Source: Antedon mediterranea (lineage: Eukaryota; Animalia; Echinodermata). From it: DNA of 64,000 bases. The notes under the pieces are model-generated. The model was not told where the DNA came from, made no database searches, and saw nothing but the letters and a program-made list of their open reading frames with translations. Shown one piece after another: positions 646-36,036 of this stretch. The DNA lies in NCBI RefSeq assembly GCF_964355755.1, contig NC_092673.1, forward strand, positions 16,340,948 to 16,404,947. The letters run 5' to 3'. A program made the translations under genes and the position numbers. Each line of letters begins with the position of its first letter. Position 1 is the first letter of the stretch.

Positions 646-1485
646 TAATAAATCAAAGTTTAGCAGGATCTAAATGAAACATAACAAGACATGATTTTTT
701 TTGGAAAAATGTTACAATGAGAGAAAAAAGTAAGCACTTTATTAAAACAAACCAAATAAAAATAACTAAATAGTTTATATGATTTATAACTGATTTAAAG
801 TGTACGGTACCTAGCTGTCAAATACCATAAATCTTTAATCTACTTGTAATTATTTTGTATCAAGTGACAATGGTCTAATTAATTGTAAATATGAAATAAA
901 ATGGGACAACTAGATTGACCAATATAAAAGAACAAATAAAAAAATGGTTGTTAAAAAATGAATAGATTCTGATTTTAATAAAAAATAATTATTAATTAAT
1001 AACCTGCTCCCTCCCTTACCTTACAAAAAATTCTTCTGTCAGTCTATCCAGCTAATTATAAACATGGCCTTAAAGATATTTTTTTCCAACCTATTCTAGA
1101 AGTTGCATTTAATGTACTGACATTTCCCATTAACTAAATTTAAATATAAATTCATTTAACTGCTTATTGGCCTCATATTTTTAATATCTCAACATTTGTT
1201 TGTACAATTTTATAAAATATGTATTTTATTAATGTTCAAATTTTGTGATTGATTTTGTACAGCAAGTAGATTTTAATGATTACTTACATTAAGTAATAGC
1301 CTAACAATCACTACATCTGATCCATGGTAATATATTATATTTTGTTTTCATTTATCAATAATGATAATTAGGATTTTATCACATTATTTAGCAGTAATTG
1401 TTGTTGTTTGTATTGACAAAAAAAACAAATTTCACATAATGTCTGTTGTCAGTTTATAAACTTCATGATTATCATTCCTTTCCAG

Positions 1486-1530
1486 GATGGTGACACTCCA
1501 TTACATTCATATCTGTGGAGTGAATATCCA
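1486..1530 (+). pseudogene. Truncated ankyrin exon (DGDTPLHSYLWSEY, then joined to intron sequence)
   Basis: cctttccag acceptor and exon 5' half are present; at atccatg the sequence switches to a copy of the intron block and an in-frame TAA follows. Confidence 0.8.
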
Positions 1531-1665
1531 TGTTAAGATATTCTAGTTTGTTCTCATTTATCAATAGTTAACAATTAGGATTATTTACCACATTATTTAG
1601 CAGCAAAAAACAATTTCACATGTTTGTTGTCATTATTTATAAACTCCATTATGATTCCTTTCCAG

Positions 1666-1773
1666 GATTGTGACACTCCATTACATTCATATCTGAGGAA
1701 AGGATATACACCTACCTTAGCAATAGTGACGTGTCTCATTCAGCATGGGGCACCAGTAGCATTGCAAAATGAG
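1666..1773 (+). CDS. Ankyrin-repeat exon A, DCDTPLHSYLRKGYTPTLAIVTCLIQHGAPVALQNE (phase 0-0)
   Basis: ttccag|GAT ... GAG|gtaaat; 108 nt; TPLH and L-x-x-GA ankyrin motifs. Confidence 0.85.
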
Positions 1774-3242
1774 GTAAATGTACAAGGATTTGCTAGTCTA
1801 ATAGGCTAACATTATATAGATCTGCTGAAGTAAACCATTTAATGAGAGAAAAAAGTAAGCACATTAACAAAAATCAAATTTGATTAAAACAAACCAAATA
1901 AAAATAGTTATATATGATTTATGATCTGATTTAAAGTGTACAGTTACCTATCATATAACATAAATCTTTAATTTTCTTAATGAACAAAAAAAATTTTTTT
2001 TTTTATATATATTCAGTTAATATTAATTAACAATTATTGACAATGGTCTAATTAATTGTAAATATGAAATAAAATGTGACAACTACTAAACAACTAAAAA
2101 TGTTTATGTTAAAAAAATTTATATAAAATCTGATTTTAATAAAAAATAATTATTAATTAATAACCTGCTCCCTCCCTTACCTTACAAAAAATGCTTCTGT
2201 CATTCTATCCAGCTAATTATAAACATAGCCTTAAACTACATCTGGAGATCCTTTTCCAACCTAGGATCTTTTTGTGCAAATAATTTGCCACAAAAGGAAG
2301 AGAAATGTAAATAACGTTTAGCCTTTAGTTAGTGGTTTCCAAAATTTAAAATGTTTGAGCAATGCAATTTTAAAAAGAAAGCTAATATGAAATTATTCTT
2401 TTCAAACTGAATGCTTTAAGAACAGTTCCGTCTCTTATCTTATGCCTTTTTTGGGAAAAAATGACATTATTAAAGTTGCTATTTAAAATTTGATACTAGT
2501 AGTGCCAACAGATGGTTCTTAAATACATGACCTTTGGTAAATAACTGAAAATTGTTTAAGTACAAAGCAAATAAATACAGATATGTTGGAATTTATGTAG
2601 TCAAATATAATTGTCATCCTGAGAATTACCTTAATTTTGTTTATTGCATGGTATTGTTCACCAAATTCCTGTCTTGGTACATTTGATGATGGGATGGTAT
2701 CAGGCTTCATGATATATGATATTATTTTCATTGAGGCAAATGGTTTAAACTAAATTTGTTATCGTTAATAACTTAACTTAATTATGATATTGGTTTCATT
2801 GGGTGTTAAAAATCAGTACTGAAAGTATGTACCAACTTTCTCTACCATTGAGTATAAATTCTAGAAGTTGCACTTAATTTACTGAAATTTCCCATTGCCT
2901 AAATTTATATATAAATTAATTTAACTGCTTATCGTATTGTTAACATCTAAACATTTGTTTGTACAATTTTATGAAATATGTATTTTATTAATGTTAAAAT
3001 TTTGTGATTGATATTGTACAGTAAGTAGATTTTAATGATTACTTACATTAAGTAATAGGCTAACAATTACTAGATCTGATCCATGGTAATATATTATATT
3101 TTGTTTTCATTTATTAATAATGATAATTAGGATTTTATCACATTATTTAGCAGTAATTGTTGTTGTTTGTATTGACAAAAAAAACAAATTTCACATAGTC
3201 TGTTGTCAGTTTATAAACTTCATGATTATCATTCCTTTCCAG

Positions 3243-3353
3243 GATGGTGAAACTCCATTACATTCATATCTGTGGAGTGAATATACTGTACCTACCTTAG
3301 AAATAGTGACGTGTCTCATTCAGCATGGGGCACCAGTAGCATTGCAAAATAAG
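3243..3353 (+). CDS. Ankyrin-repeat exon B, DGETPLHSYLWSEYTVPTLEIVTCLIQHGAPVALQNK (phase 0-0)
   Basis: ttccag|GAT ... AAG|gtaaat; 111 nt. Confidence 0.87.
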
Positions 3354-4279
3354 GTAAATGTACAGGAATTTGTTAGTGTAATAAGCTAACATTATAGATC
3401 TGCTGAAGTAAACCATTTAATGAGAGAAAAAAGTAAGCATATTAACAAATATCAAATTTTATTAAAACAAACCAAATAAAAATAATAACTAAATAGTTTA
3501 TATGATTTATGATAACTGATTTAAAGTGTACAGTTACATATAAATCTTTATTTTTCTTAATGAACAAAAAAATCTATTTTTTTTTTTATATATTCAGTTA
3601 TTAATTAACATTTATTGACAATGGTCTAATTAATTGTAAATATGAAATAAAATGCGACAACTACACTGACTAATAATAAAATAGCAAATAAAAAATGTTT
3701 ATGATGTTAAGAAAATTAATAGAATCTGATTTTATTAATTGATTAAGGAAAATGGTTTAACCTAAATTTTTTTTAAGCGTTAATATCTAATATCTAAATT
3801 AGCTTAATTATGATATTGGTTTCATTGGGTGTTAAAAATCAGTACTGAAAGTATTTACCAACTTTCTCTACCATTGAGTATAAATTCTAGAAGTTGCACT
3901 TAATTTACTGAAATTTCTCATTACCTAAATTTATATGTAAATTCATTTAACTGCTTATTGGCCTCATATTGTTAACATCTAAACATTTGTTTGTACAATT
4001 TTATGAAATATGTATTTTATTAATGTTTACATTTTGTGATTGATATTGTACAGTAAGTAGATTTTAATGATTACTTACATTAAAGTAATAGGCTAACAAT
4101 CACTAGATCTGATCCATGGTAATATATTATATTTTGTTTTCATTTATCAATAATGATAATTAGGATTTTATCACATTATTTAGCAGTAATTGTTGTTGTT
4201 TGTATTAACAAAAAACCCCAATTTCACATAATATCTGTTGTCAGTATTTATAAACTTCATGATTATCATTCCTTTCCAG

Positions 4280-4390
4280 GATGGTGAAACTCTATTACAT
4301 TCATATCTGGGGAGTAGTATACATGTACCTACCTTAGAAATAGTGACGTGTCTCATTCAGCATGGGACACCAGTAGCATTGCAAAATAAG
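4280..4390 (+). CDS. Ankyrin-repeat exon C, DGETLLHSYLGSSIHVPTLEIVTCLIQHGTPVALQNK (phase 0-0)
   Basis: ttccag|GAT ... AAG|gtaaat; 111 nt. Confidence 0.87.
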
Positions 4391-5312
4391 GTAAATGTAC
4401 AGGGATTTGCTAATGTAATAAGCTAACATTATATAGATCTGCTGAAGTAAACCATTTAATGAGAGAAAAAAGTAAGCACATTAACAAAAATCAAATTTTA
4501 TTAAAACAAACCAAATAAAAATAATAACTAAATAGTTTATATGATTTATGATAACTGATTTAAAGTGTACAGTTACATATAAATCTTTATTTTTCTTAAT
4601 GAACAAAAAAATCTATTTTTTTTTTATATATTCAGTTATTAATTAACATTTATTGACAATGGTCTAATTAATTGTAAATATGAAATAAAATGCGACAACT
4701 ACACTGACTAATAATAAAATAGCAAATAAAAAATGTTTATGATGTTAAGAAAATTAATAGAATCTGATTTTATTAATTGATTAAGGAAAATGGTTTAACC
4801 TAAATTTTTTTTAAGCGTTAATATCTAATATCTTAATAGCTCAATTATGATATTGGTTTCATTGGGTGTTAAAAATCAGTACTGAAAGTATTTACCAATT
4901 TCTCTACCATTGAGTAAAAATTCTAGAAGCTGCACTTTATTTACTGAAATTTCCCTTTACCTAAATTTATATGTAAATTCATTAAACTGCTTATTGGCCT
5001 CATATTGTTAACATCTAAACATTTGTTTGTACAATTTTATGAAATATGTATTTTATTAATGTTCAAATTTTGTGATTGATATTGTACAGTAAGTAGATTT
5101 TAATGATTACTTACATTAAGTAATAGGCTAACAATTACTAGATCTGATCCATGGTAATATATTATATTTTGTTTTCATTTATCGATAATGATAATTAGGA
5201 TTTTATCACATTATTTAGCAGTAATTGTTGTTGTTTGTATTAACAAAAAAAAAACAATTTCACATAATGTCTGTTGTCAGTATTTATAAACTTCATTATG
5301 ATTCCTTTCCAG

Positions 5313-5420
5313 GATGGTGAAACTCTATTACATTCATATCTGAGTGGATATACTGTACCTACCTTAGAAATAGTGACTTGTCTCATTCAGCATGGGGCAC
5401 CAGTAGCATTGCAAAATAAG
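5313..5420 (+). CDS. Ankyrin-repeat exon D, DGETLLHSYLSGYTVPTLEIVTCLIQHGAPVALQNK (phase 0-0)
   Basis: ttccag|GAT ... AAG|gtaaat; 108 nt. Confidence 0.87.
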
Positions 5421-6373
5421 GTAAATGTACAGGAATTTGTTAGTGTAATAAGCTAACATTATAGATCTGCTGAAGTAAACCATTTAATGAGAGAAAAAAG
5501 TAAGCATTTAACAAAAATCAAATTTGATTAAAACAAACCAAATAAAAAAATAACTAAATAGTTATATATGATTTATGATAACTGAATAAAAGTGTACAGT
5601 TACCTATTATATAACATAAATCTTTAATTTTCTTAATGAACAAAAAAATCTATTTTTTGTATATATTAATTAATTGTATATTAAGTACAAAGCAAATAAA
5701 TACAGATATGTTGGAATTTATGTAGTCAAATATAATTGTCACCCAGAGAATTACCTTAATTTTGTTTATTTCATGGTATTGTTCACCAAATTCCTGTCTT
5801 GGTACATTTGATGATGGGATGGTATCAGACTTTATGATATGATTTTCATTGAGGCAAATGGTTTAAACTAAATTTGTTATCGTTAATATCTAACTTAGCT
5901 TAATTATGATATTGGTTTCATTGGGTGTTAAAAATCAGTACTGAAAGTATGTACCAACTTTCTCTACCATTGAGTATAAATTCTAGAAGTTGCACTTAAT
6001 TTACTGAAATTTCCCATTACCTAAATTTATATGTAAATTCATTAAACTGCTTATTGGCCTCATATTGTTAACATCTAAACATTTGTTTGTACAATTTTAT
6101 GAAATATGTATTTTATTAATGTTTACATTTTGTGATTGATATTGTACAGTAAGTAGATTTTAATGATTACTTACATTAAAGTAATAGGCTAACAATCACT
6201 AGATCTGATCCATGGTAATATATTATATTTTGTTTTCATTTATCAATAATGATAATTAGGATTTTATCACATTATTTAGCAGTAATTGTTGTTGTTTATA
6301 TTAACAAAAAAAAAACAATTTCACATAATGTCTGTTGTCAGTATTTATAAACTTCATTATGATTCCTTTCCAG

Positions 6374-6481
6374 TATGGTGACACTCCATTACATTCATAT
6401 CTGAGGAGTAGATATACACCTACCTTAGAAATAGTGACTTGTCTCATTCAGCATGGGGCACCAGTAGCATTGCAAAATGAG
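6374..6481 (+). CDS. Ankyrin-repeat exon E, YGDTPLHSYLRSRYTPTLEIVTCLIQHGAPVALQNE (phase 0-0; absent from the ORF track)
   Basis: ttccag|TAT ... GAG|gtaatg; 108 nt. Confidence 0.87.
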
Positions 6482-7143: not shown

Positions 7144-7228
7144 GATGGAAATACACTTGTCTCTCTTTTAGAAAGTAACAGGTGGATAGAGGAGCAAAGT
7201 AAAACTGAAATTTTAAACTTCTTAGAAG
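7144..7228 (+). CDS. Ankyrin C-cap-like exon DGNTLVSLLESNRWIEEQSKTEILNFLE (phase 0-1)
   Basis: tttaatag|GAT ... GAA G|gtaagt; DGNT start continues the ankyrin register; 85 nt. Confidence 0.8.
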
Positions 7229-9217: not shown

Positions 9218-9310
9218 ATTTACCAAGTACTGTTGATGAGCAATTTCTAACACAATTTCAGAAACATACAAGTGACAAACAGAAAACAAAACTTCTTAAG
9301 CCAGAGAGTG
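9218..9310 (+). CDS. Linker exon 1, DLPSTVDEQFLTQFQKHTSDKQKTKLLKPES (phase 1-1)
   Basis: tttttttag|AT ... AGT G|gtgagt; 93 nt. Confidence 0.78.
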
Positions 9311-11224
9311 GTGAGTTTAAGAATAAGAGCTGCTGTATGTTTTATGATTGTATCTATATTATAATTTAACAGAATTGTGATTAAAATGGGATTTCAGTAA
9401 AGAGAGAATTAGACGCTAATGTTATTAAAAAAACATTTCTGAGCGGTACTGTAAAAAGGCGAAAAGTGTGCAACTGATAACAAATAACAAATGGAGAGAT
9501 TTTATTTATCATAAATAAAACAAACAGTTGATTGTTTCCATTTAAAATACTGTAATAATGGAATGAAGCTAGTTTGCAGATTAATTTATGTGGCATGCTT
9601 GCTTGATTTTTGCTTGATTGTTGATTTTTAGGTTATTTATATGCATTATCATGCGATCACGCACGTAGAACCTTTCTTTAATAATATCATCATATTTTAT
9701 TCACTTTTCAACTCGAATTTGCGTTATACGAGCACATCAAAAGTGACAGGCTACGCACGTGTAAATTAAAAAAATGGTGAAAATATGCTAAATTTTAAAA
9801 ATAATATAGATCGTCAGAAAGCTCGGGAACACATATTTTTTATTTCATTTTCTTGAAGTGTATGTATCATGTATGATTTATTATGAAATTAAGAGTACAA
9901 AAGTTGATAAGTCATCATTAATTGCATTTTAAATTTAAAAAAATTTTTTTCGACAATCAAAAAATTATGACATTTTCTTAGGCCAAAATAACAAACTTTA
10001 ACTTTCTTCTTTCAAAATAAAAGTTCATATATTAAAGTTAAAAGTATATAGTTTGACAGTGCATCATTTTTTAACATTTTTAAAGATGTCATCATAGTAA
10101 AAAATTATAACTCATTGCGGTATATAATAATCTATCTGCGCCAAAGTGGTTACTGCATAGTAAATACACGGAGGAATCTTTCTACAACTTTTAGTCAGTT
10201 GTGTATAGGCTAAAATAGTCCTTGGCTGTACTGCTAATAACTAATTGTACTGTATATTCATTACATTGGTGGTGGGGGGAGGGGAGGTGTTCTTCTAAAC
10301 ACTAAGCCCTTCAAAGTATAACTAATCTCTACCAAGTGTATAAAGTGTATATTTTACAAAATATTTATATTATACAAACATTTAGAGTGTTAATTGCATT
10401 TTAAGCAATAATACATTTAGAGAAATTATGACACATTGTACATTCTAGGCTGATGTTTAAATTTTTAATTTTTTTACTATTAATATTTACAAAAGTGTAG
10501 CGTACACACATAATGGGGAACTAACGACTGGGGACAGTGGGCACGTTTTCTGAGCGTGCTTTAGTAGGACCAGAAAAGCCTTTAAAGCTGCAATTCCAGG
10601 TCTATATTGACAAAATTGTTTGAAAACTTACGATAGATGTTTTTAATCGCATTTCCTACTGCCTAATTCTGAATCATACCAGTTATTCATTTCAGGATTA
10701 CTTTATTTTCACTTTACCCATTGAAACCATGCTAATCAACTGTATGTTGCTAGAATTTCAACGATTTAGATTCAGGATCGTTGTCAAAAAATGTTGCATA
10801 ACGTCTATATGTTTGGATGAGTTTGTGTTCATCATAGTAAAAAATTATAATTCATTGCGGTATGTAATAATCTATCTGCGCCAAAGTGGTTACTGCATAG
10901 TAAATACACAGAGGAATCTTTCTACAACTTCTAGTCAGTTGTGTATGGCTCGGTGGTCTGTGCTCGTGTCTATGGCATTCAAGGTACCGAGATCGAGTCT
11001 CACATTGGGAAACGAAATAAGATTTTTTTTTTATTATTCATATTGTTTGTTCAATTTTATTTTTTAGTGTATAGATTATACACATAATTTATAATGAAAT
11101 CTAGATAAAAAGTAAGTAATGTCTTTATTATTATGTAACAATGTGGTTTATGACATTATACGCAGAGGGATCTTTGATCGGATTGTGATACCGGCTATTG
11201 TATTCGGGTTAGCAAGATCCTATA

Positions 11225-11690
11225 TCTATATATAAATTTACGTACGGGCAAAATTCGATAAATCGCGGTTTATTTCTAGAATTTATACTCGATGGTATAT
11301 AAAGTTGGTTCGTACTTTCGGTACTCATTTTAACCATCTGATGTAACCCTGTTTACTAATTAAATTGAGTTAAATAATTAGTTATTGACAATTAAAACGA
11401 ATTTAGGTTCAACGATTTGCCCCAAATAGGGGTGTTTCGTGGTTGTGGTATACACTGTATAATGGATGTCAATCTTAATAAATACCCACACACAATAATA
11501 CGAGGATGCTTCGCATTTTCCTATCTCCTCCTCAATAATTGTTTTTAATAGCTGAAAACCGGTTGAACAGCTCGAGTACAGCATCATAATGTTGAAGATT
11601 TTCTTTAAAAAATACTATTTTGATAGATTTAAATTAATATACGTTTATACAAATGTTTTGATCTGGGATAAATAGAACATTCCAATCTCT
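11225..11690 (+). mobile_element. Helitron 5' fragment (same family as 20822 and 32955)
   Basis: Begins A|TCTATATATAAATTTACG and matches the first about 460 bp of the other copies. Confidence 0.8.
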
Positions 11691-12796: not shown

Positions 12797-12874
12797 ATTT
12801 ACCAAGTCTTGTTAGTGAACAGTTTGAGAAACTAATGGTTGAAGAACAGAAAACAAAGCTTAAACCAGTGCTTG
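12797..12874 (+). CDS. Linker exon 2, DLPSLVSEQFEKLMVEEQKTKLKPVL (phase 1-1; paralogue of the 9218 exon)
   Basis: ttttttag|AT ... CTT G|gtgagt; 78 nt; shares DLPS..EQF..QKTKL and the downstream gtgagtttaagaat. Confidence 0.78.
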
Positions 12875-12922: not shown

Positions 12923-15900
12923 TAGACCGGGCGCCCAGAAGATTTATTCATGTGAAAAGCCACAAAAGGTCTGATGGGCTGATTATGTAGATATATGGCC
13001 AAGATTCAATAATCAATATTGCTGCCGGGTCCTATCCTGTAAATTTACCCTGGGGACACCAAATAGGAGGGGTAAAAAATGGATTTAATCATGTGAAAAG
13101 CCACACGGATAAAAGTTGTTGGACATTGTTCCCATATGTGTATACAATGTTAAAACAGCAATGACAGCAACTTTATCCTGTAAGTTGCCCGAGACAGTAG
13201 CCCCAAGTGACCACTAAAAAATGGTGTTATTCACCACACGGCTAATTCCTTTTGATTGCAACTGTTACACATTGGGGTGCACAAAAATATTATTGACAGC
13301 AACTTTATCCTGTAAGTTGCCCCAAACAGTAGCCCTAGACAGTAGCCAAGAAATGCCCGTTGGGCTATACAAAATTTAATCACACGAAGAGCCACACGGC
13401 CAATTCCTTTTTTATTGGAACTGTTACGTCTTGGGATAGACGAAAATACTGATGACAGCAACTTTATCCTGTAAGTTTCCCCAGACAGTAGCCCCAGACA
13501 GTAGCCCAGAAATGCCCGTTGGGTCTGGGCCTACAAGATTTAATCACACGAAGAGCCACACAGTCAATTCCTTTTTTATTGGAACTATTACGTCGTGGGA
13601 TAGACAAAAATACTCATGACAGTAACTTTATCTTGTAGGTTTTCTCAGACAGTAGCCCCAGACAGTAGCCACACGGCCAATTCCCTTTTTATTGGAATTG
13701 TTATGACTTGAAATATACGAATGTATTCACGACAACACGTCGGCAGGCTCCTTAACTTCAAGTTTACCCATCAAGTTACAATTTAAATTTACCACCATGT
13801 GACACGAATACGGTTTTGTCACCTATTATTGGACCATAGTGATCATTCTGGACATCGTTTATAAGAAACTGTGCTAGAACTTCCTTAAATTCTCCATTCT
13901 TTAATAGATCTATACCTTTCTTTTGCTGTTGTTGATCCGCTCCAGTTATAATGAATGTGTTCTTGGCGTTCTACTCTGCACCTCTCTTTAATCTTTCGAC
14001 ATCTTCTATTGATTGTTCTATATATTTGTCCAGCGACATGAGAACAGAATTTCCACTGGCTGAACATACCTTAATCATGATATCTAAAACAATTTTAAAT
14101 CGTTTTCCCATTATGTAGACACATTATGACGAGGTAAAATTTCATGCAGAACAAGTCCGCCATCAAAGAGAGTTGTGTCGGTCACAGGAGTATCTTCCTT
14201 ATGTGAACCAGATTGTCTTGTTTCTAAAATCTTCGCAAAAATTGCCTTCTCTGTTTTTGTTGGAGTACCATCGAATGTGCAATAGCTAGTGGTATTTCAG
14301 TGATCGTTAGTACATACTGTAATGCAAATCTGTAGTCGTCTTTGATAACAAGTATCCAAAAGCATCACGAACACCTTCAGCTGCACCAAGAGCTTTGTTG
14401 CATTTAACGATTTCTTCTTCATGTTTGAAGCAGTACAATTGCGTACCTTTATACGCTTTACCGTCTTTAATAATCTTGTTTCGTCTGAAACACATTCTTT
14501 GTAAAATAGCTGCCGTGATAGGTATCCTCTCTGTAGTGTTCCCAGCAAATATGTACTATAGTTATGTCATTTACAGCTTTACCTGTAGCAATATTTACTA
14601 ATGTGGTTGGTGAATCAGTGGGGAATGGATTGCATGTACTATTTAGCTTAATGAGAAACTTGTCTACATCATTATTATCTCTCTCAATCCTCCGTCGACG
14701 TAACTGGTTAGCTGGTGTTTCACCGGGTTGAATTCCACTCATGGACTTCATTTCAGACACAGGAATACTCCGTTGAGTGAGATTTACGCAACAACGACGA
14801 AATGCACTCTCTGAGTTCGCAAAAGCTGTATTTCCAGTTGCCGATGACGCAGCATCTCTGTTAACAGTTTGCTCTAATGTAAGATCTACGTTTTTTCGTT
14901 CGTCGTGTTGAAAAGGCACCGGCTTTTAAAACATCTAATGCTGCAGAGTCCAAATTCTTCATTTTTTTCAATAAAAAGTGACCCCCAACGAGCATAATTT
15001 GGCCGGTTCAGATTTCAACCAAATACGGTAGTACATTGATGTACAGAATCACATCATTCGTTATTACTGCACGCTGGAATTGACGATACAAGCGGTTGAT
15101 AAGGTACACGTAAATAGCCCAATATGCGGCAGTGTTGCCAAATTCACCCTTTATAGTACGATGTAAAAATTCTTCATATTCATTAGGAAGTATTAAGAAT
15201 TCGTCACTGTCGGCAATTTGATTAGGCGCATTAATGTCGTCCGTTGGTATTGCTCGAACACTTTGTAGCAAAGTATCATCTTTCATATAGTAGGTACCCA
15301 GGAATCGCTTAAACAATTCTTTCTCAAAGGCCATAGCAGTGATTTGATGTATTCTGGTGCATCGGTTGTATAATTTACCATGGATGAAACCATTATCAAT
15401 CAATCAATCAAATCAATCAATCAAATCAATCAAAGTAACATTTATTTCTCTTCTTTTCTTTCATAGAATATATAATTACAGTAAATATGATTAAAATATG
15501 AGGGGCAAGATTCCAAAAAAGCGAAGCTTGTATAAGGCAGCCCATAAAAACTGAAACAAAAAACAGGACAACACAGGAACCGGAAACAGGACAAAAACTG
15601 TAATGAAGACTTTTAGTTTCAGGGTACCGAAAAGACTAAATAAAGTCTTAAGTGACCTCTCTGCCAGTATACCCGATTCAGTTAGAATATATTCGATCCC
15701 AGAATCAGAAATGTATGTTCCAACCGCTCCAAAAAATGCCACTTCGATATGAAAGTGAAAAAGTGAGTGAGTGATGAAAGTGAGTAAAATTACAAGTCTA
15801 TCAAAAGCTTTAAGTGCCACGTCACTGGATGATACAGCATTTTTGTCTCATCTGCAACTTTACGAGATCGAATCATTGTCTCTTGCACAACATCATTTCT

Positions 15901-17989
15901 TGTTGTTGGTTATAAAATTTGGTCCATGTATGCAATGGCAGTTAAAGGAAATGGATCGTTAACGAACGTTGAGTATAAGCCATTGAACAGAGGAAGTTTT
16001 CAATTAGATGATAAGATTAGCCAAACTAAAGAGAATAACTTGCATCGGATTCACTTATTTTGTTCCTGGTCTTTTTCTTCAAATTTAAACTTGGCAAGTT
16101 TTAGATTTGAATAAAATAGTGGTACTATTTTCTCTGCTCCGTCAAATTTCCGCCTAGGTCTTCCAGTGACCAAACTGACCGGCAGTCCTTCCATCTCAGC
16201 GGTTTGCCCCTGAAGGACATTCTGATACGCAATGCGAACTGTAACATTGAGACTATTTTTACCATCCAGGGTTTCCATGTTTAAATCGTAATTGTCCCAC
16301 GCAGTACCTGTAAAAACAAAACATATCAATATATACACATAATGTACTGTGCAATTTGTCACCTTGATTATTGATACTAATTACTAATTTCATTTATATT
16401 TTTCATTAAATTAAAAATATTTATATTACCTGTAGCCAATAGAGGTTGCAACAATAAGCCAGTGGGTGTCTCCAATTCACTCAAAGAACATGTGTATGCT
16501 ATTTCGGTCTCCAGACGTTTACATTCATCATAGCTTATTGTATGACTGAGGCGATTTAAAATAGTGATTGCTCCCTTAGATCCAAGCATGGACGTTAAAC
16601 CATGGAGAAATAACTTATTTCTCCATGGTTAAACCAAGACCTAACGATGTATTCTTCCAGGGCCTGACAGTACCTCGTGAAGTTGCAAAAACAATATCCG
16701 GTGACAGTGATTGCGTTTTTCTCATAATTTTTCAGATAATCCACATACAAATGTTTGATAAAACAATTTAGTCAGAGGTGGTAGTGGTGAACATTGTTTC
16801 ATTGTGTGAATAGATTTCGGTGAAGGAATTTTTCTTTTTTTCCATTTTCAAGATTTCTGACCGAAGCGCTAAACCGCACATTGAATTGTTTCATCATTTT
16901 CATTGAGGTCTTTTAACCGTGATTTAGCTTTATTGACGCTCATGTCTTCAGGGTATAAAAAGTTTCCAGTCTTGTTTGAGTCTTTGCTAATATTTAATCT
17001 ATCTCTAAATGTGGTCATTAATTTAGTAACTAATGGCTGACAAGCAAAAGAACGAATATCATCGTCAGTACCTCCGACTGCTTTATACTGTTCTTTGTAC
17101 AAATCCATGATTTTAAAGGCATATTTTGGTATACGTTTACAAATTATTTCATTTTCAACGTACCTCACCAGCCCATTGTATGCTTCTTCGTGTGTTTTTC
17201 TGTTTCTACTTATTACTACTTTCTGGGGCTACTGTCTGGGGCAACTTACAGGATAATTTTGCTGTCATGTGTATTTTTGTCTATCCCAAGACGTAACAGT
17301 TCCAATAAAAAAGGAATTGGCCTTGTGGCTCTTCGTGTGATTAAATCTTGTAGGCCCGGACCTAATGGGCATTTCTGGGCTACTGGCTGGGGCTACTGTC
17401 TGGGGCGACTTACAGGATAAAGTTGCTGTCATGAGTATTTTTGTCTATCCCAAGACGTAACAGTTCCAATAAAAAAGGAATTGGCCGTGTGGCTCTTCGT
17501 GTGATTAAATGTTGTATGGTCCAACGGGCATTTCTGGGCTACTGTCTAGGGCTACTGTTTGGAGCAACTTACAGGATAAAGTTGCTGTCAATGATATTTT
17601 TGTGCACCCCAATGTGTAACAATCAACAATCAATCAACAGTTGCTATGCAAAAGGAATTAGCCGTGTGGCTCTTGACATGAATAACACCATTTTTTAGTG
17701 GTCACTTGGGGCTACTGTCTCGGGCAACTTACAGGATAAAGTTGCTGTCATTGCTGTTTTAACATTGTATACACATATGGGAACAATGTCCAACAACTTT
17801 TATCCGTGTGGCTTTTCACATGATTAAATCCATTTTTTACCCCTCCTATTTGGTTTTCCCAGGGTAAATTTACAGGATAGGACCCGGCAGCAATATTGAT
17901 TATTGAATCTTGGCCATATATCTACATAATCAGCCCATCAGACCTTTTGTGGCTTTTGACATGAATAAATCTTCTGGGCGCCCGGTCTA
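12923..17989 (-). mobile_element. Academ-type DNA transposon 1 (degenerate, about 750-bp TIRs)
   Basis: TAGACCGGGCGCCCAGAAG...CTTCTGGGCGCCCGGTCTA termini; 3-bp TSD TAT; internally repetitive long TIRs. Confidence 0.85.
13760..17200 (-). pseudogene. Fragmented Academ transposase (N-terminal/catalytic part), with one intron at 16308-16429
   Basis: Ordered motifs LNRLSHTISY, WDNYDLNMETLDGK, FHIE..F, GKLYNRCTRIH, DLTLEQTVN across frameshifted ORFs; a GT-AG intron joins LLATG to TAWDN. Confidence 0.75.
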
Positions 17990-19557
17990 TATTGTGATTA
18001 AAATGGTATTTCAGTATAGTAGAGTAGAACTAATGAAAAAAAGGGGCCAACCTCAAAAAAATTGCAACAAAAGGTTTTTCAACGGATTTTGGTAGTATTG
18101 GGTCTACTAAACAACAGAAAAAAAGTCTCAAGAATTTGCGACCCCCGGAAAGTGGTTTTTTTCAAGATGGCCGCCAAAATAGATAAAAAGTGAAAATGGC
18201 CATACCTCCTAAACTACTTGGTCTATTGATATAATTTTGGTACCAACATACTCAGAACATACATATTTATATTCGCTATAATAGAAAATTTTGGCCAAAA
18301 TTGACCGGAAATACCATTTCTGACAATTTGACCTTTGACCTTGATATGTTGTATCTTGGTAACAACTGACCGTAGGGAAACAAATGATGGCTCAAATTGT
18401 TCAGAATGTACATATTTACATTTATTGTAATGAGACATTTTGTCAAAAAATGGTTGGAAGTAAAGGTTATTGACCTTTAACTTTATCTATGTAGAATTTC
18501 CATATCTCGGCAACTATGTGTGGTAGAGATTTAAAATTGGGCTCTAAATACTGAGAAAATACTTATTTATATTTACTCTAATGAAACAGTTTGACAAAAA
18601 ATGACTAGAAACGACATGATTTGACCATTGACCTTGATGCTATATTTTGATAATGACTGACTGAGATACACTATTTATGGCTCAATTTGTTCAGAATATA
18701 ATTATTTTTATTTCGTATAATGGTCTAATCTACCCATGGAATTAAGAGCTTTCCTGGGAATCAAGTAAACTGTAATATTTATAAAGACTTTTAGAATATG
18801 AGTTCAAGTTCAAATTGTTCAGAACATACTGTATACATTCTTAATAATAATAGTGTATAAAAAACCCGAAAAGTAAACAAAAACAAATAATAATAATTTT
18901 AAATTTCTAATTACGGTATAGCAGCAGTTGATTGGATATTGTGCATGTATTTAGTACGGCATCCTAAACAACTGTTCCAACTTCGTCTTCATCGTCATCA
19001 ATCTCTCTATCTACGTTGTTCCATTCTTCTAGTTGACACACTCCACAAACTGAAGTACATGCCAATCCATAGCGTCTACAACTGCAACATACAGTTTTAC
19101 ATCCAGTAGTACAGTTACAAAGGATGATTTTCAAAGTTCTTCTGGAGCAGCAGTTTCAATCGTCATTATTGGCACAAATGTTTTATTAAAAACTTCCCCG
19201 ACTTGGCAGCATCCATGGTATTATCTTTCTTTATCCATTGCATGATTTGATAGTATACTCTAAGACTGTGACATTTTGTAGCAGATGAGGTTGGTGGTAG
19301 TAGTTGTTGAGGTTTGATAAATTATTTACCTTCAGCAACTTTCTTATTAAACAGCTTGCATCTGTAGCTATTTAGGAAATCCAGTGACTTGGCTCCAAAA
19401 AGAATAGACATGGCCTTTAATCCAAACTCCTCGATAGTTTGAAGTTTCTGATGCGGTTGAGTGAAAATATCGGCACACATCAGTGTCATATTCTAGGTTA
19501 CTTTCTATCAATTTATTGGTTTATTTGCCTTCCTAAAGATGTCTTTGGCTTCGAAGA

Positions 19558-20794
19558 GTGAGGGTGGAAACGAACTTAGTTCATATTTCATTACATCGTC
19601 CAGAGAGATTTGTCCTAACTGAATTTGATGGAAAGAAAGAAGAATTCCTGTCAAGGCATGAGAACAAACACAAATTTATCAACATGCTTTCATATGAGCT
19701 ACAGAAAAAAGAATGTCCTGTACGACATGCAGCCAACGAGTTATGGTTATGATGCTTGGCTACCACTCCAAGGGTCCTGAGTTCAAGTTCCGTCACATGT
19801 CAGGATTTTTTCTAAGGACCAAATTACTCCACTCCCAAAGACTTGTAATAAGACTTTGTTTTGTAGAGCATCTTGTGTATATGCTTGTCTTGATCAGCAA
19901 TAGCTGCATGGATCACCCACATTAAATATGGTTTAAAAAAAACAAAAAAAACAATGCCGATGTTGACATTGCTCTGGCAACAGTTGAAGTCTCTGAACAT
20001 AATACAGTAACTTTGATTGGAGAAGACACAGACTTTACTGGTACTTTTACTGTATCATGTAAATACAACAAACCGAGAAGTGTACTTCAGATTAGACAAA
20101 GGAAAAGATGGGCCTACTAGAGTGATTAATGTAACCAGTTTGAAATCTGTTTTAGGATATAAAATGTGAACTGCATTACCCATAGTGCATGCATTCACTG
20201 GTTGTGATTCGACGTCTAGGATTTTCGGAATCGGCAAGAAAGCGGCATTTAATAAATTGATTGAAAGTAACCCAGAATATGACATGTGTGCCGATATTTT
20301 CACTCAACCGCATCAGAAACTTTAAACTATCGAGGAGTTTGGACTGAAGGACATGTCTATTCTTTTTGGAGCCAAGTCACTGGATTCCCTGAATAGCTAC
20401 AGATGCAAGCTGTTTAATAAAAAAAGTTGTTGAGGGTAAATCATTTATCAAACCTAGCCTCAACAACTACCACCAACGTCATCTGCTACAGAATGTCAGT
20501 CAAATCATGCAATGGCTATAGAAAGATAATACCATGGATGCTACCAAGTGGGGATGGAAAGTTTGTAATAAAACATTTGTGCCAATAATGACGATGGAAA
20601 CTGCTGCTCCAGAAGAACTTTTGAAAATCATCCATTGTAACTGTACTACTGGATGTAAAACTGTATGTTGCAGTTGTAGACGCTATGGATTGGCATGTAC
20701 TTCAGTTTGTGGAGTGTGTCAACTTGAAGAATGGAACAACGTAGATAGAAAGATTGATGACGATGATGAAGACGAAGTTGGAACAGTTGTTTAA
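19558..20794 (+). pseudogene. Academ XPG/FEN1-like nuclease plus Cys-rich C-terminus remnant
   Basis: ADVDIA, GEDTD, HAFTGCDSTSRIFGIGKK, LPPT, WGW, APEELLKIIHCNC..C..C.C..CT..C motifs with stops and frameshifts. Confidence 0.75.
19739..19952 (+). mobile_element. tRNA-derived SINE-like insertion in the Academ coding remnant
   Basis: B-box-like gagttcaagt head and A-rich tail; interrupts HAAN|ADVDIA. Confidence 0.55.
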
Positions 20795-20821
20795 GATGCC
20801 GTACTAAATACATGCACACTA

Positions 20822-22140
20822 TCTATATATAAATTTACGTAAGGGCAAAATTCGGTAAATCGCGCCTTACTTTTAGAATTTTTACTCAATGGTATATAAA
20901 GTTGGTTCGTACTTTCGGTACTGATTTTAACCACCTGATTTAACCCTATTTACTAATTAAATTAAGTTAGATAATTAGTTATTGACGATTAAAACGAATT
21001 TAGGTTCAACGATTTGCCCCAAAGAGGGGTGTTTTCCGATCGTGGTATACACTGCCTAATGGATGTCCATCTTGAAAAATACCCGCCACAAAAATTCGAG
21101 GAGGCTTCGCATTTTCCTATCTCCTCCTACGATAATTGTTTTTAATAGCTGAAAACCGGTTGAACAGCTAGAGTACAGCATCATAATGTTGAAGACAGGC
21201 CGATTTTCTTTAAAAAATACTATTTTGATAGATTTAATATACGATTCTACAAATGTATTGATTTGCGATGAATGGAACATCCCAATCTCTCAGTCTGCCA
21301 GAGTTTAACACAAGTAGGTAAATTTATGAGCCCTTGGTTTAACACATACGGTAGGTAAATTGGGCCCTTTGAGAATATACTTGCAATACTTCGACAATAC
21401 TGTAAATACCTATTAACTATTGTTTGTCCTCATTTGAATCGAACATTTCTTACTGTGAATGTTCGTACTGTTAGATGTAATATAAAAATATATACAAATA
21501 AACTTTATTACTGAGATTGTGGATACTACTGTTAGATATATAAACACATTATTATATACAAATAAACTTTATACTGACAGTTCCTTCTCAACGTTTGTAT
21601 TAATTAATAATTACCAAAAATATAAACGTCGTAGTGGTGTATCGTGTACTTTAATATTTCAATCGATTATGACAGTGACAGTTTTAACAAAGTATTAAAT
21701 CGCAAATGTTTTACTGTATTTAGATGTAGGCCTATATTATTTATAGGCCTATAAAACATGAAAGAAATATTTCGTTACTGAGTGGATAAAGAATATATTT
21801 AAAAATTGTTCTTCTTTGTACCTATCCGCTTTCCCATCCCTCAACCCTAATGTTACATACAAAACACAAATTGGGTTTCTTTAAAAGAGTCCAAATCAAA
21901 AATTTGGACTCATTTTGTGATAAGTTTCTCCTTCGGAAGTAATTCCCAGGGTGCTAATTTTAGTTGACTACATAAATCATCGTGTCTATTTATTCGTTTC
22001 TGTAAACGACAATGTATTATAGTACTGCGGTACGTACATTTGAAATCGCCAGTTTTGTTACGCTGAAATTACTGTGTATTCGAGAACCATCTGTGGGTAC
22101 GACCTAGATGGTACGCGAGCGAAGCGAGCGTACCATCTAG
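20822..22140 (+). mobile_element. Non-autonomous Helitron
   Basis: 5' TC, 3' CTAG, inserted between A and T without TSD (the empty site is visible in the inverted arm near 18940); terminal hairpin. Confidence 0.9.
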
Positions 22141-23151
22141 TCTAATCAATTGCTGCTATACCGTAATTAGAAATTTAAAAGTTATAATTATATTCTGAAC
22201 AAATTGAGCCATAAATGGTGTATCTCAGTCAGTCATTATCGAAATATAGCATATCAAGGTCAATGGTCAAACATGTCGTTTCTGGTCATTTTTTGTCAAA
22301 CTGTTTCATTAGAGTAAATATAAATAAGTATATTCTCAGTATTTAGAGCCCAATTTTAAATCTCTACCACACATAGTTGCCGAGATATGGAAATTCTACA
22401 TAGATAAAGGTTAAAGGTCAATAACCTTTACTTCTAACCATTTTTTGACAAAATGTCTCATTACAATAAATGTAAATATGTACATTCTGAACAATTTGAG
22501 CCATCATTTGTTTCCCTACGGTCAGTTGTTGCCCAGATACAACATATCAAGGTCAAAGGTCAAATTGTCAGAAATGGTATTTCCGGTCAGTTTTGGCCAA
22601 AATGTTCTATTATAGCGAATATAAATATGTATGTTCTGAGTATGTTGGTACCAAAATTATATCAATAGACCAAGTAGTTTAGGAGGTATGGCCATTTTCA
22701 CTTTTTATCTATTTTGGCGGCCATCTTGAAAAAAACCACTTTCCGGGGGTCGAAATTCTTGAGACTTTTTTTCTGTTGTTTAGTACACCTAATACTACCA
22801 AAATCCGTTGAAAAACCTTTTGTTGCAATTTTTTGAGGTGAAACCTTATTTCTACTCTACTAGTAGTGGACTTGTAGTAATATAAGAATTTCATTCATTT
22901 AGTTTATCATATATTATATAATATACAAATTCTTATAATTGCGTGCAACTTCAATAGCTTAAATTGTCCTTGGCTGTATTGCTATGATTATTAGTTTCTC
23001 ACTCATGGTTCAAAATTTGGCACAAAACATTTTCAATGAGTTGAAAGATTAAGAGAATTATTTAATTGGTCAGATGTTTTGTCTTATTCTGACGTAATTG
23101 CACTGTATACTCAGTTCAATGAGAACACTTTGCGAACAAATTTAAAAGTAT

Positions 23152-23726: not shown

Positions 23727-24262
23727 ATCGAATGGAGTTAATTGTGGACTCTACAGGTGGAACTCTTCACCTTAAGGATGAAGGCATAAAGTTACAGATA
23801 CAACCTGGAGCAATAGAAGAAGGAAAGACAGTTAAAATATCACTAGAAAATATTTTGGAGGAAACAGACATGCCTGTACTTCATCCACTTGAATCAATAA
23901 TATCACCTATTGTTAAATGTGGACCAGAAGGCACCATCTTCAACAAGCCCTGTTTACTGTCATTTCCACACAATGCTGTAAATGAAGAGTTTTGGGAATT
24001 CTCTCTACTTTTTAAAGAATGCTTTCAAGATAAATGGAAAAACCTCACATTAGAAATTGATGAAAAGGACATGAATTTTACTTTAAACAAGGGCCGATGT
24101 TTTATAAATTTAAATCATTTCTGTTTTTCTGCAATTAAAGGTCGAGTAAGAAATATCTTTTATGCTAAAAAAAGTATAAAGTTGGGCGTTTTTGGAAAGG
24201 CGCTTGTAAATGAAAATGAATATCGACTTCGAGTAACATTTTTTAAGCCAGGAAAACAAAAG
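23727..24262 (+). CDS. ZU5 domain exon plus start of UPA (phase 1-0)
   Basis: ctgcag|AT ... AAG|gtaatt; VDSTGGTL, GIKLQIQPGAI, ISPIVKCGPEGTIFNKPCLLSFPH and LNHFC motifs typical of ZU5. Confidence 0.9.
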
Positions 24263-24908: not shown

Positions 24909-25043
24909 GAGGTTAATGAAGAACAAGCATACCAGGGCGACAAACTTTTAGAACCAGGTACAGTACGGTCTTTGTATAAAGACTTGGAAATAAGAGTTGA
25001 AATACCAAATCAGAAATGGAGAGTAGTGGATAAAAGAGTAAAA
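24909..25043 (+). CDS. UPA-like exon, EVNEEQAYQGDKLLEPG...WRVVDKRVK (phase 0-0)
   Basis: tttcag|GAG ... AAA|gtaagc; 135 nt; E...G.KLLE pattern as in UPA segments following ZU5. Confidence 0.8.
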
Positions 25044-26584: not shown

Positions 26585-26726
26585 ATTATCCTTGCTGAAT
26601 ACCTATGGTGTGAAAGACCATCAACAAAATTTTATTTAGAAAGAGTTAATTCATCAACAAATGATCTAAGGGCAACCTTATCACTAAAACAAGATTCAAA
26701 TGATATTCCTGAAGTGGAAGTGGATT
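26585..26726 (+). CDS. UPA-like C-terminal exon, IILAEYLWCERPSTKFYLERVNSSTNDLRATLSLKQDSNDIPEVEVD (phase 0-1)
   Basis: ttttttcctag|ATT ... GAT T|gtaagt; 142 nt, open. Confidence 0.8.
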
Positions 26727-26886: not shown

Positions 26887-26910
26887 GTGATATCAGGTCT
26901 TCAATCGCAA
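26887..26910 (+). CDS. 24-nt micro-exon (phase 1-1)
   Basis: tttgttacag|GT GAT ATC AGG TCT TCA ATC GCA A|gtatgt. Confidence 0.6.
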
Positions 26911-27515: not shown

Positions 27516-27545
27516 GAAATGTTGAACCACCCGTAACCAACCCAG
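27516..27545 (+). CDS. 30-nt micro-exon NVEPPVTNP (phase 1-1)
   Basis: tttgttacag|GA AAT ... CCA G|gtataa. Confidence 0.6.
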
Positions 27546-28495: not shown

Positions 28496-29020
28496 CAAAT
28501 TTCAATGTCTTGCAAGAAAAGTTCAGAAAGTTAAAACATGATCTTGGCTTAGTCTATGTTGGTGAAAGATACCTCTTGCCAAGATGTTGTCTCTTTGATG
28601 AAATAGATTTAGAGACCCTTGCTGATCCAAATTGCACAGCAAATGATCTATTTAACAACCTCCATGACAAAGATGACATCTCACCTGCTGATATTAATAT
28701 CTTGTCGGAGATTGCTGATTTGTCACAGCTTAAAGATGCTGAAAATCTTATAAATCTGTATGTGATAGAAAATAAGATTTCAAAAACCGATAAACATACA
28801 CTATCCACATATAGGAAACGATTATGTAAGGCATTGAAACAATTTGACCCAAATAAGTTAAAAGATGTAATTGCTTTCTATGGATTGAGGCCATTAAGAA
28901 ATAGCATAGAAACCATTTGGGATTTAGTGTTTCACTTGGAGAGCAATGGAAAATTAATAAATGAATCAGAAAGAAAGATTTTTGCTGATCTGCTTGGACC
29001 AATTGCAAAGAATATACTTG
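28496..29020 (+). CDS. Tandem death-effector-domain (DED-DED)-like exon (phase 1-1)
   Basis: ttttttccag|CA ... CTT G|gtatgt; 525 nt; DLFNNLHDKDDISPADINIL, LSTYRKRL and IWDLVFHLESNGKL match by eye the DED pattern of caspase-8/cFLIP prodomains. Confidence 0.8.
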
Positions 29021-30214: not shown

Positions 30215-30245
30215 ATCCATACCAACAACAACACAACAACGACAG
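30215..30245 (+). CDS. Small exon DPYQQQHNND (phase 1-2)
   Basis: ttatttcag|AT ... GAC AG|gtatgc. Confidence 0.7.
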
Positions 30246-30598: not shown

Positions 30599-30633
30599 TA
30601 GCTTCATCAAAAGGATATATACATATTTGAAAG
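30599..30633 (+). CDS. Small exon SSFIKRIYTYLK (phase 2-1)
   Basis: ttctttttacag|T AGC ... AAA G|gtatta; phases match both neighbours. Confidence 0.7.
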
Positions 30634-30922: not shown

Positions 30923-30996
30923 ATCACTGGTGGATGATTCCAGTTTGTATTATTTTAATTGCAGTCTTTGTAAAATTTGTATATGGACTAGTATAG
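30923..30996 (+). CDS. Terminal exon encoding a C-terminal transmembrane anchor, DHWWMIPVCIILIAVFVKFVYGLV-stop
   Basis: gatttcag|AT CAC TGG TGG ... GTA TAG; about 20 hydrophobic residues immediately before the stop. Confidence 0.75.
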
Positions 30997-35810: not shown

Positions 35811-36036
35811 TTTATTATAATGTATCTTGATTTATATTACATTCTGTGATGAGCTGAATAGTTAAATAACATATTTATAGTTTTTTGTATTATATTGTTT
35901 TCAACAAATTTATAGTAGAAGGGAGAGAAAAACAAAAAAAACTGTAATATTAATCTTAACTCAAACTCATTTTGGTTGGAAACAATAATAATCATTGTTA
36001 AATTAATGACCAGTATTTTTATTTGCAGACAACACA

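Follow-up and report, generated by a model that had tools for sequence, protein, structure and literature searches.

The five-exon array and the gene downstream

The window, that is, the whole 64-kb stretch of Antedon mediterranea DNA that was analysed, carries five full exons (E1–E5) that each encode one ankyrin (ANK) repeat, accompanied by a truncated copy (E0) and followed by exons for a capping repeat, two linkers and a ZU5-UPA-DED-like tail (Table 1). All five full exons are bounded by CAG and GT, with splice sites present, keep the frame and contain no stops. Their repeats have a mean column identity of 88%, with 78–94% identity to E2, and Pfam Ank (PF00023) matched every one of them, exceeding the gathering score in E2 and E5. 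An initial annotation had described five phase 0-0, one-repeat exons with the loops listed in Table 1, and this anatomy was exactly as claimed; the count of five holds for the full exons, but the sixth, broken copy had been missed. The loop of E0 starts like that of E2 and then breaks, still inside the loop, into intron-derived sequence. When the E0 acceptor was computationally spliced to the E1 donor, 288 nt with two stops resulted; the E0 acceptor could compete for this donor and so yield stops. The E3 loop differs from the E2 loop by compensating one-base shifts. Upstream, the intron-like stretch is homologous to the sequence following each ANK donor, which suggests that another exon lies upstream of the window. 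The paralogs' N-cap exon had no match within the 64 kb, and the start exon lies outside the window.

Table 1. Features of the window, with positions counted from its first nucleotide.
Feature	Positions	Strand	Details	Basis
Intron-like stretch	716–981	+	BLAST self-match, 73–76% to 1841–2235, 3458–3738 and 4458–4776	
E0, truncated ANK pseudo-exon	1486–1531	+	Intact acceptor, first 14 codons	Self-comparison
E1, ANK exon	1666–1773	+	108 nt, loop RKGYT, phase 0-0	Self-comparison and Pfam Ank match
E2, ANK exon	3243–3353	+	111 nt, loop WSEYTV, phase 0-0	Pfam Ank above gathering score
E3, ANK exon	4280–4390	+	111 nt, loop GSSIHV, phase 0-0	Self-comparison and Pfam Ank match
E4, ANK exon	5313–5420	+	108 nt, loop SGYTV, phase 0-0	Self-comparison and Pfam Ank match
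E5, ANK exon	6374–6481	+	108 nt, loop RSRYT at 6404–6418, phase 0-0	Pfam Ank above gathering score
C-terminal capping-repeat exon	7144–7228	+	Phase 0-1; 86% identity with the cap in ANK-Roc paralog P0012	
Linker exon 1	9218–9310	+	Phase 1-1; common to ROCO paralogs P0012, P0014, P0016, P0017 and ZU5 paralog P0003	
Linker exon 2	12797–12874	+	Phase 1-1; diverged duplicate of linker 1	
ZU5 exon, start of UPA	23727–24262	+	HF-C at position of PIDD/Nup98 HF-S self-cleavage site; 100% to P0002	
UPA exon	24909–25043	+		Paralog comparison and domain search
UPA exon	26585–26726	+		Paralog comparison and domain search
Small linker exon	26887–26910	+		Open-chain reconstruction
Small linker exon	27516–27545	+		Paralog comparison and open-chain reconstruction
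Tandem DED-like (death-fold) exon	28496–29020	+	Pfam DED below cut-off; weak fold matches	
Small exon before tail	30215–30245	+		Paralog comparison and open-chain reconstruction
Small exon before tail	30599–30633	+		Paralog comparison and open-chain reconstruction
Last exon, hydrophobic C-terminal tail and stop	30923–30996	+	Predicted membrane anchor	

An assembly or sequencing artefact was considered for the array, which is spanned by no raw long read, the best run containing 0.39 of the sampled words. Against this, the letters by which the exons differ reappear in independent runs from several organisms and in paralog proteins, and the differences preserve the frame in all five exons. The probability of an artefact is next to negligible.

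The ZU5 exon is identical to the A. mediterranea protein P0002, a RefSeq model that begins at a Met within linker 2 and omits the ANK exons. The chain of 17 exons reconstructed from E1 to the stop is open and encodes 777 aa, of which P0002 is an exact suffix. The ANK arm is probably spliced through the cap and linkers onto the ZU5-UPA-DED-like tail. A domain search of P0002 returned a single ZU5 (Pfam, E 6e-21) and no Death match; UPA (E 6e-5) and DED (E 0.016) were below cut-off, as was the DED match of the tandem DED-like exon taken alone (E 0.002). The predicted model of P0002 is poor (pLDDT 48), and the matches of its DED-like part to the DEDs of caspase-8 and cFLIP are weak (E 0.08–0.1) and come from a low-confidence model, so they are treated as leads only. 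The best 19-residue hydropathy of the C-terminal tail is 2.6, at residue 505 of 523. Among solved structures, the best match of the ZU5 domain was UNC5B (E 3e-15), with ankyrin-2 at E 0.016. The motif [HS]F[SCT] occurs in all eight distinct ZU5 copies of the family, as HFC at the window locus, and its F lines up with the leucine of UNC5B that PMC3210808 names. The 10.9-kb intron preceding the ZU5 exon is mostly filled by two inverted-repeat elements.

Variation in the loop, the framework and the introns

Columns were compared in E2–E5, four of the five exons, E1 being left out because its upstream intron is truncated. In the loop after helix 1, 11 of 15 columns are variable, against 28 of 421 in the introns (Fisher P 7.5e-10), and none of 20,000 permutations reached 11 variable columns in any 15-column window. 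Divergence is 36–50% in the loop, compared with 2–6% in the upstream introns and 0–12% in the first 60 nt downstream. The exon-versus-intron check proposed with the initial annotation places the loop well above the introns, and its wording of "nearly identical" introns is apt relative to the loop but not in itself, given that divergence, many indels and lengths of 1469, 926, 922 and 953 nt. In the framework, which differs by seven non-synonymous changes and one synonymous change, 6 of 93 columns of E2–E5 vary, as in the introns (P 1.0), and consensus residues are altered in E1 (G to C) and in E3 and E4 (TPLH to TLLH). Framework variation is neither below nor above that of the introns, and purifying selection on E1–E5 lacks support; the framework described as near-invariant is so across window exons and paralogs, but it is no more conserved than the introns.

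When window exons and paralogs were taken together, all ten loops were distinct and fell into four lengths, within repeats of 35–40 aa that share 18 invariant columns and an otherwise near-invariant framework; the next most variable positions were x3 (1.7 bits) and x5 (1.3). According to the available part of PMC4308713, positions 2, 3, 5, 10 and 13, at which natural ANK repeats show high entropy, make up an ANK library's binding surface; the numbering was mapped onto the crinoid repeats by us. In the model of paralog P0010 (pLDDT 93), which stands in for the spliced ANK arm of the window locus and matches DARPins with a TM of about 0.8, the variable segment spans the end of helix 74–83 and the loop to helix 91–99. 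The variable stretch, at the margin of the predicted binding face, would take in the last part of helix 1 and the turn leading to helix 2.

Between E1 and E5, seven framework and five to six loop positions vary in amino acid, with 1–2.5 synonymous changes depending on gap placement, in agreement with an earlier hand count of about 12 amino-acid-changing codon positions versus about two synonymous. Four gap placements gave 18.5–26 non-synonymous against 1–2.5 synonymous changes (P 0.096, 0.079, 0.013 and 0.024), an excess that is weak because 76% of sites are non-synonymous anyway. Family contigs aligned to E5 numbered 227, 175, 152 and 8 in four sequencing runs; copy number was not read from their summed depth, and the drop in depth across the loop was left out of the evidence. 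Among the 40 of 71 variant rows listed, 18 fall in the 15-nt loop and 2 in 143 nt of intron; one-base indels obscure the codon phase within the loop, and stops are read in two rows. Synonymous changes account for 3 of the 38 exon variants listed (P 0.0125–0.0012), a deficit drawn from 40 of the 71 rows that ten further synonymous rows would erase. Diversifying selection, as proposed initially, may underlie the loop excess and this family-wide deficit, but the five exons alone give alignment-dependent values (P 0.01–0.10). The concentration of diversity at the edge of the binding face is borne out by the loop excess, the ten distinct loops, the scarcity of synonymous changes among the exon variants listed and the place of the exons in an ANK-ROCO/ZU5-DED family.

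The same pattern might arise through relaxed constraint at a mutable spot, with a permissive inter-helix loop accumulating slippage-type indels while concerted evolution homogenises the rest, and with neither selection for diversity nor an immune role. Compensating one-base indels do cluster in the loop, where the E0 break also lies, and the synonymous deficit of the loop alone is weak (1 of 18 among the variants listed, P 0.03–0.10). Relaxation alone, however, cannot lift divergence about tenfold over the introns; moreover, only 4 of the 38 exon variants listed are at third codon positions (P 0.001), and the same segment varies in subfamilies with different framework sequences (P0048, P0023 and P0106). 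We consider this explanation unlikely.

Unit recombination, spliced junctions and paralogs

All three incompatible 2:2 splits are present among the E2–E5 units, and exact tracts of 218–253 nt connect different intron pairs; the units are recombinant mosaics. Together with the broken E0, they support recombination as a means by which units are gained and lost. In run X5, presumed to be RNA although it also covers introns and repeats, exon-end to exon-start (repeat-to-repeat) junctions were found along with a step in depth at each of the two splice sites; both features were missing from X1 and X6. Most X5 junctions start with letters absent from all five exons, and one fits E4–E5 but paralog P0010 as well. 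Spliced repeat-to-repeat junctions exist for family members and are not assignable to the window locus. The 15 of 200 joints listed include no GT..AG joint of the window locus, which is neutral with regard to both exon skipping and the link between ANK and ZU5. The contigs are short and none spans the array; paralog models contain two to eight ANK repeats.

Diversity could also be generated in the cells of each animal, by skipping, re-ordering or conversion of cassettes. The symmetric phase leaves any subset of exons in frame, each run holds very many distinct contigs, and ROCO LRR exons are alternatively spliced in brown algae, as reported in the accessible portion of PMC11378527. Yet no skipping junction occurs among the 15 of 200 joints listed or among the four X5 joints listed, there is no recombination signal or inverted cassette within the window, and germ-line paralogs and alleles account for the observed diversity. 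Such a somatic or splice-level repertoire is very unlikely.

On sequence grounds, the window exons belong to a larger ANK-ROCO/ZU5-DED gene family. Paralog P0012 has the order ANK-cap-linker-Roc, P0023 and P0048 are Ncap-ANKn-cap-Roc-COR-DED, and P0015 is the same without a DED match; Roc-COR is carried by P0014–P0017, P0019, P0020, P0023 and P0048. Framework and Roc sequence were the grounds for placing P0048 and P0106 in the family, after examination of 8 of at least 150 matches, mostly unrelated ankyrin-rich proteins. Three memberships were rejected for the window locus itself: ROCO, as the paralogs' Roc-COR had no tblastn match within the window at E 0.1; NLR, as a scan of P0002 and 19 relatives found neither NACHT nor NB-ARC; and canonical ankyrin, in view of the one ZU5, the DED-like output and the missing Death match. 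P0003 has the same linker 1–linker 2–ZU5 layout, with a ZU5 80% identical, and its RefSeq model likewise comes without ANK. Other family members are broken up in RefSeq into models with ANK only (P0010, P0011) and models from the linker onward (P0014, P0016, P0017); RefSeq's omission of ANK at the window locus is therefore weak evidence, and the family is hidden in gene annotation because its genes are divided into separate models.

These annotations bear on the alternative that the exons are an orphan array or a reservoir: left over from an ANK-ROCO gene after the loss of Roc-COR, they would not be spliced to the ZU5 gene, which would start in linker 2; gene conversion would have brought in their loop diversity from functional paralogs, and they would now drift or act as donors. 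It would account for P0002 and P0003 without ANK, for a framework that varies like intron, for the broken E0 and the changed consensus residues in three exons, and for X5 junctions that cannot be assigned to the window locus. It is countered by five full exons all in frame with splice sites kept, by the intact cap and linkers and the chain open to the stop, by the layout retained in P0003 and by the truncation of ROCO paralogs in RefSeq at the same linker. We regard an orphan array as doubtful, though deserving of serious consideration.

A candidate sensor and its relation to known systems

The explanation towards which we lean, with modest confidence, is a germ-line-diversified innate sensor in which an ANK arm sits on a ZU5-UPA-tandem DED-like-membrane tail, as a derivative without Roc-COR. 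The one-repeat cassettes would probably be the arm that senses ligand in a crinoid family of innate-immune receptors; unequal crossing-over, gene conversion and selection on the loop would diversify this family in the germ line, and the cap and both linker exons would join the arm to the tail. The ZU5 domain may cleave itself at HF/C, by analogy with PIDD, CARD8 and NLRP1 at HF/S or SF/S. Once the ANK part is bound or destroyed, the membrane-anchored UPA-DED part would be freed and could then form oligomers and recruit DED caspases or adaptors; for the ligand, a microbial protein serves as the working guess. A bolder version, which we deem quite unlikely, envisages a DARPin-like crinoid repertoire: dozens of one-exon ANK cassettes, whose CDR-like loop varies in length, would be shuffled anew inside clustered genes, from one such gene to another and, through exon skipping or conversion, in the individual animal. 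Plugged into Roc-COR-DED switches or self-cleaving ZU5-UPA-DED, they would provide an invertebrate deuterostome with an anticipatory intracellular sensor converging on NLRP1/CARD8 logic.

Hypervariable repeat-per-exon ROCO sensors in brown algae and hypervariable ANK arms in fungal NLRs are already known, and for crinoid hypervariable ANK-exon receptors no paper was found in a literature search whose coverage left out most subscription journals. In Ectocarpus and other brown algae, genes encoding ROCO LRR and NB-ARC-TPR proteins are exon-shuffling candidate receptors (PMC3341825 and PMC11378527, in the parts accessible). As there, the Antedon family is clustered with fast turnover and a candidate function, has one repeat per symmetric exon, placed N-terminal to Roc-COR (in the Antedon paralogs only), and combines inactivated with live cassettes, inter-unit recombination and variation on the predicted binding face. 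The algal receptors, as far as these sources go, differ in using LRR or TPR instead of ankyrin and in belonging to an alga instead of an animal; repeat positions vary at fixed length there, whereas the Antedon loop varies in length. The Antedon outputs are death folds, with ZU5-UPA in place of Roc-COR at the window locus. Brown algae also have cassettes on the non-coding strand, whereas the window has no reverse-strand acceptor motif or ANK match. Fungal ANK NLRs such as Podospora Pa_3_8560 share near-identical ANK repeats and swappable signalling domains; in the accessible text of PMC4986451, selected sites lie on the inner helix and hairpin, repeat number changes by recombination, and the conservation criterion is about 85% over 100 aa, compared with the 88% mean column identity in Antedon. 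The Antedon proteins, by comparison, are without NACHT/NB-ARC, and each of their repeats occupies a separate exon flanked by introns of its own.

PIDD1, CARD8 and NLRP1, as covered by the available part of PMC3210808, similarly combine a sensor, a ZU5 with [HS]F[SCT], UPA and a death-fold output. Antedon differs from them in having an ANK arm where they have LRR or NACHT-LRR, in its single ZU5, its tandem DED-like part instead of DD or CARD, its added hydrophobic tail and its expanded family; the putative nucleophile position holds Cys, unlike their Ser, and cleavage is only predicted. UNC5B, the best solved-structure match of the Antedon ZU5, lacks the cleavage motif. Canonical ankyrins have the layout ANK-ZU5-ZU5-UPA-DD with 24 repeats. 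They share with Antedon the order ANK, ZU5, UPA and death fold, whereas Antedon has a single ZU5, a DED-like output and few, recently duplicated, hypervariable repeats derived from the ROCO family. This likeness is taken as convergent because the ZU5 is closer to UNC5B than to ankyrin-2.

If the favoured reading is true, invertebrate deuterostomes, here an echinoderm, gain a candidate intracellular immune-receptor family, and the exchange of an ANK arm between Roc-COR-DED and a PIDD/CARD8-like ZU5-UPA-DED tail ties ROCO proteins directly to death-fold signalling. The repeats would also supply a natural scaffold of ankyrin type in which a variable loop between the helices is tolerated. DARPins and ANK-N5C libraries, in the accessible parts of PMC4308713 and PMC8683736, likewise have an N-cap, self-compatible internal repeats and a C-cap, with a constant framework and variable positions in the beta-turn and helix 1; the Antedon repeats differ in being natural and in carrying their main diversity in a loop inserted between the helices of 35–40-aa repeats.

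Cassette exons and their variable loop

Self-comparison of the window confirmed the positions, loop sequences and phase 0-0 that the initial annotation had assigned to the five ankyrin (ANK) exons, E1–E5. These exons are 108 or 111 nt long, with a CAG acceptor and a GT donor, and are separated by introns of 1469, 926, 922 and 953 nt. Pfam Ank matched all five, above the cut-off in two. A sixth, broken copy retains its acceptor and 14 codons, after which the loop interior passes into intron-derived sequence; computed splicing of its acceptor to the E1 donor gave two stops. Across 6345–6480, sequencing runs X1, X5 and X6 contained family copies in which a deletion (joints 6345–6459, 6349–6419 and 6345–6480) has taken out the acceptor together with some or most of the exon, one of them breaking at the loop end. 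These copies are further dead cassettes.

Divergence in the loop (15 alignment columns after helix 1) was compared with that of the introns for E2–E5, excluding E1 because its upstream intron is truncated, and was higher, as the initial annotation had proposed: 11/15 columns varied vs 28/421 in the intron (P 7.5e-10). None of 20,000 permutations placed 11 variable columns in any 15-column window, and the top intron window held five. Mean pairwise difference per site was 0.36–0.50 in the loop, 0.043 in the framework and 0.02–0.06 in upstream introns, the framework (6/93 variable columns in E2–E5) not differing from intron. Loop variability thus exceeds chance. The loops of E3 and E2 differ by compensating one-base shifts. 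The cassette array with its hypervariable loop is real, and an artefact is scarcely credible. Ten of ten same-framework repeats (five from the window, five from paralogs) carry distinct loops of four lengths around 18 invariant columns.

The claim that changes are almost only non-synonymous held as a count, but such a count is mostly expected with 23.6% of sites synonymous; across E1–E5, four gap placements gave P values of 0.096, 0.079, 0.013 and 0.024. A tolerant, mutable loop is a reading we consider improbable. Contigs from four runs aligned to E5 (227, 175, 152 and 8), and among the 40 of 71 variant rows listed, 18 fell in the loop (15 nt), 20 in the framework (93 nt) and two in the intron (143 nt); loop density would still be five times higher if the other 31 were all intronic. 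Synonymous rows numbered 3 of the 38 exon rows listed (P 0.0125 to 0.0012), a deficit that would vanish with 10 synonymous rows among the remaining 31; codon phases in the loop are blurred by indels, and two listed rows read as stops. The selection proposed initially is supported for the loop, its combinatorial and immune parts standing as predictions.

Secondary variability was found at x3, x5, P7 and x10 of the ten same-framework repeats. In an ANK library, the high-entropy positions 2, 3, 5, 10 and 13, located within the beta-turn and within helix 1, make up the binding surface (PMC4308713); their correspondence to the window repeats is our own mapping. In a structure model of the paralog P0010 (pLDDT 93; TM about 0.8 to DARPins), the loop segment spans the final helix-1 turn and the loop leading to helix 2, which places the variable segment, as modelled, at the border of the groove, where it may contact ligand.

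Unit exchange and splicing

E2–E5 show all three incompatible 2:2 splits, with switches from one to another along the unit, while different intron pairs are linked by exact tracts of 218, 253, 120 and 118 nt; this sequence pattern argues for unequal crossing-over or conversion among the units. A joint from 6558 to 3107 was present in all four runs and suggests that tandem cassettes of a more compact layout exist elsewhere.

In X5, presumed to be RNA, junctions ran from exon end to exon start (with six loose ends) and depth stepped at both splice sites, a step missing from X1 and X6; family cassettes are therefore spliced repeat to repeat. Most X5 junctions do not match E1–E5, and one matches E4–E5 but equally P0010. 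A somatic or splice-generated repertoire we regard as very doubtful; no exon-skipping junction was found among the joints listed for the run contigs.

The downstream gene and its relatives

At 100% identity, the downstream ZU5 exon matches XP_071948739.1 (P0002, the RefSeq model of this gene in the crinoid Antedon mediterranea). E1–E5, the cap, two linkers and the P0002 exons can be joined in compatible phase into a chain of 17 exons, whose frame stays open over 777 aa and ends in the exact sequence of P0002; the order is ANK x5, cap, linkers, ZU5, UPA, tandem DED-like region and hydrophobic tail. The DED call lies below the Pfam cut-off, with weak fold matches from a poor model. P0002 itself begins in linker 2 and so lacks E1–E5 and the cap, and the N-cap exon of the paralogs was not found in the 64-kb window; the 5' end is therefore upstream or lost. 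An orphan or reservoir ANK array is a possible, though unlikely, reading. RefSeq probably often splits ANK family genes at the linker.

Two further tandem-DED-like exons of the same family lie beyond the stop and are remnants or alternative ends. The hydrophobic tail (19-residue hydropathy 2.6–3.4) ends 6 of 18 family proteins examined (P0002, P0007, P0015, P0019, P0020 and P0027) and is absent from the others, so the anchor itself is a modular exon.

A profile of E1–E5 retrieved four proteins from 3112 candidates, three being Antedon proteins with the same framework: two ANK-only models and the paralog P0012 (ANK-ANK-cap-linker 1-Roc). P0012 as query retrieved 28 longer proteins, including 13 Antedon Roc-COR (ROCO) proteins and one Anneissia ANK-Roc protein. 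Relatives P0015, P0023 and P0048 comprise an N-cap, 2 to 8 internal repeats, a cap and Roc-COR, with a DED match in two of the three; in P0048 and P0023 a long low-complexity tether of PKPES/PEPES type runs from COR to the tandem DED. Linker 1 is common to the ROCO proteins P0012, P0014, P0016 and P0017 and the ZU5 paralog P0003. We infer that the locus is a derivative with the ANK arm placed on ZU5-UPA-DED, perhaps through deletion between linker exons of a gene like P0004 (COR-DED-ZU5-UPA-DED).

Predicted receptor and surrounding elements

The window ZU5 has HF-C at the site that reads HF-S in PIDD and Nup98 and SF-S in CARD8; the nucleophile can be Ser, Thr or Cys (PMC3210808). As [HS]F[SCT] occurs in 8/8 distinct family ZU5 copies and the motif Phe aligns with a leucine of UNC5B, self-cleavage is predicted. 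Cleavage would separate ANK-ZU5 from a UPA-DED portion anchored by its tail, and the UPA-DED portion, once released, would signal to DED partners. As a whole, the locus is probably best explained, by a modest preference, as a germ-line-diversified innate sensor with an ANK arm on a predicted self-cleaving ZU5-UPA-DED.

The locus was likened to brown-algal ROCO LRR cassettes (PMC3341825; PMC11378527) and fungal ANK NLRs (PMC4986451), as far as the available parts of these sources describe them. ROCO identity was rejected, no Roc-COR remnant being found in the 64-kb window, as was NLR identity; likeness to canonical ankyrins is convergence only. Aplysia carries ROCO domains on TIR proteins (PMC9334734); their presence among the immune proteins of invertebrates thus has a precedent. 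No crinoid description of such ANK cassette receptors was found in the literature searched.

Several other elements occupy the window (Table). Minus-strand ORFs of the element after linker exon 2 are decayed and matched no Pfam family. The dispersed intron repeat is among the highest-depth sequence in 4/4 runs. Satellite units measure 71, 62, 97, 69 and 61 bp; that of 69 bp is found in four places and retains long open frames.

Table. Coordinates of features in the window
Feature	Position	Details
Broken ANK copy	1486–1531	
E1	1666–1773	Loop RKGYT
E2	3243–3353	Loop WSEYTV
E3	4280–4390	Loop GSSIHV
E4	5313–5420	Loop SGYTV
E5	6374–6481	Loop RSRYT
Cap exon	7144–7228	C-terminal capping repeat
Linker exon 1	9218–9310	
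Linker exon 2	12797–12874	
Element	12923–17989	311-nt terminal inverted repeats; inserted at TA directly after linker exon 2
Second large element	18056–22834	Nested inverted arms, 89–98% complementary; centre near 19480–20284
Dispersed repeat, ANK unit introns	2728–2916, 3747–3942, 4785–4978, 5846–6038	Fragment
Dispersed repeat, inverted	11224–11425, 20821–21025, 32964–33138	69–77% identity
Tandem-DED-like exon	36031–36375	Interrupted by inserted repeat
Tandem-DED-like exon	37809–38345	67% identical to C-terminus of relative P0001
Reverse-transcriptase ORF	43209–44129 (-)	307 aa; RVT_1 E 8e-7
Satellite arrays	1–648, 39247–42269, 45273–47478, 50621–52175, 52992–54735, 54894–56302, 59776–60135
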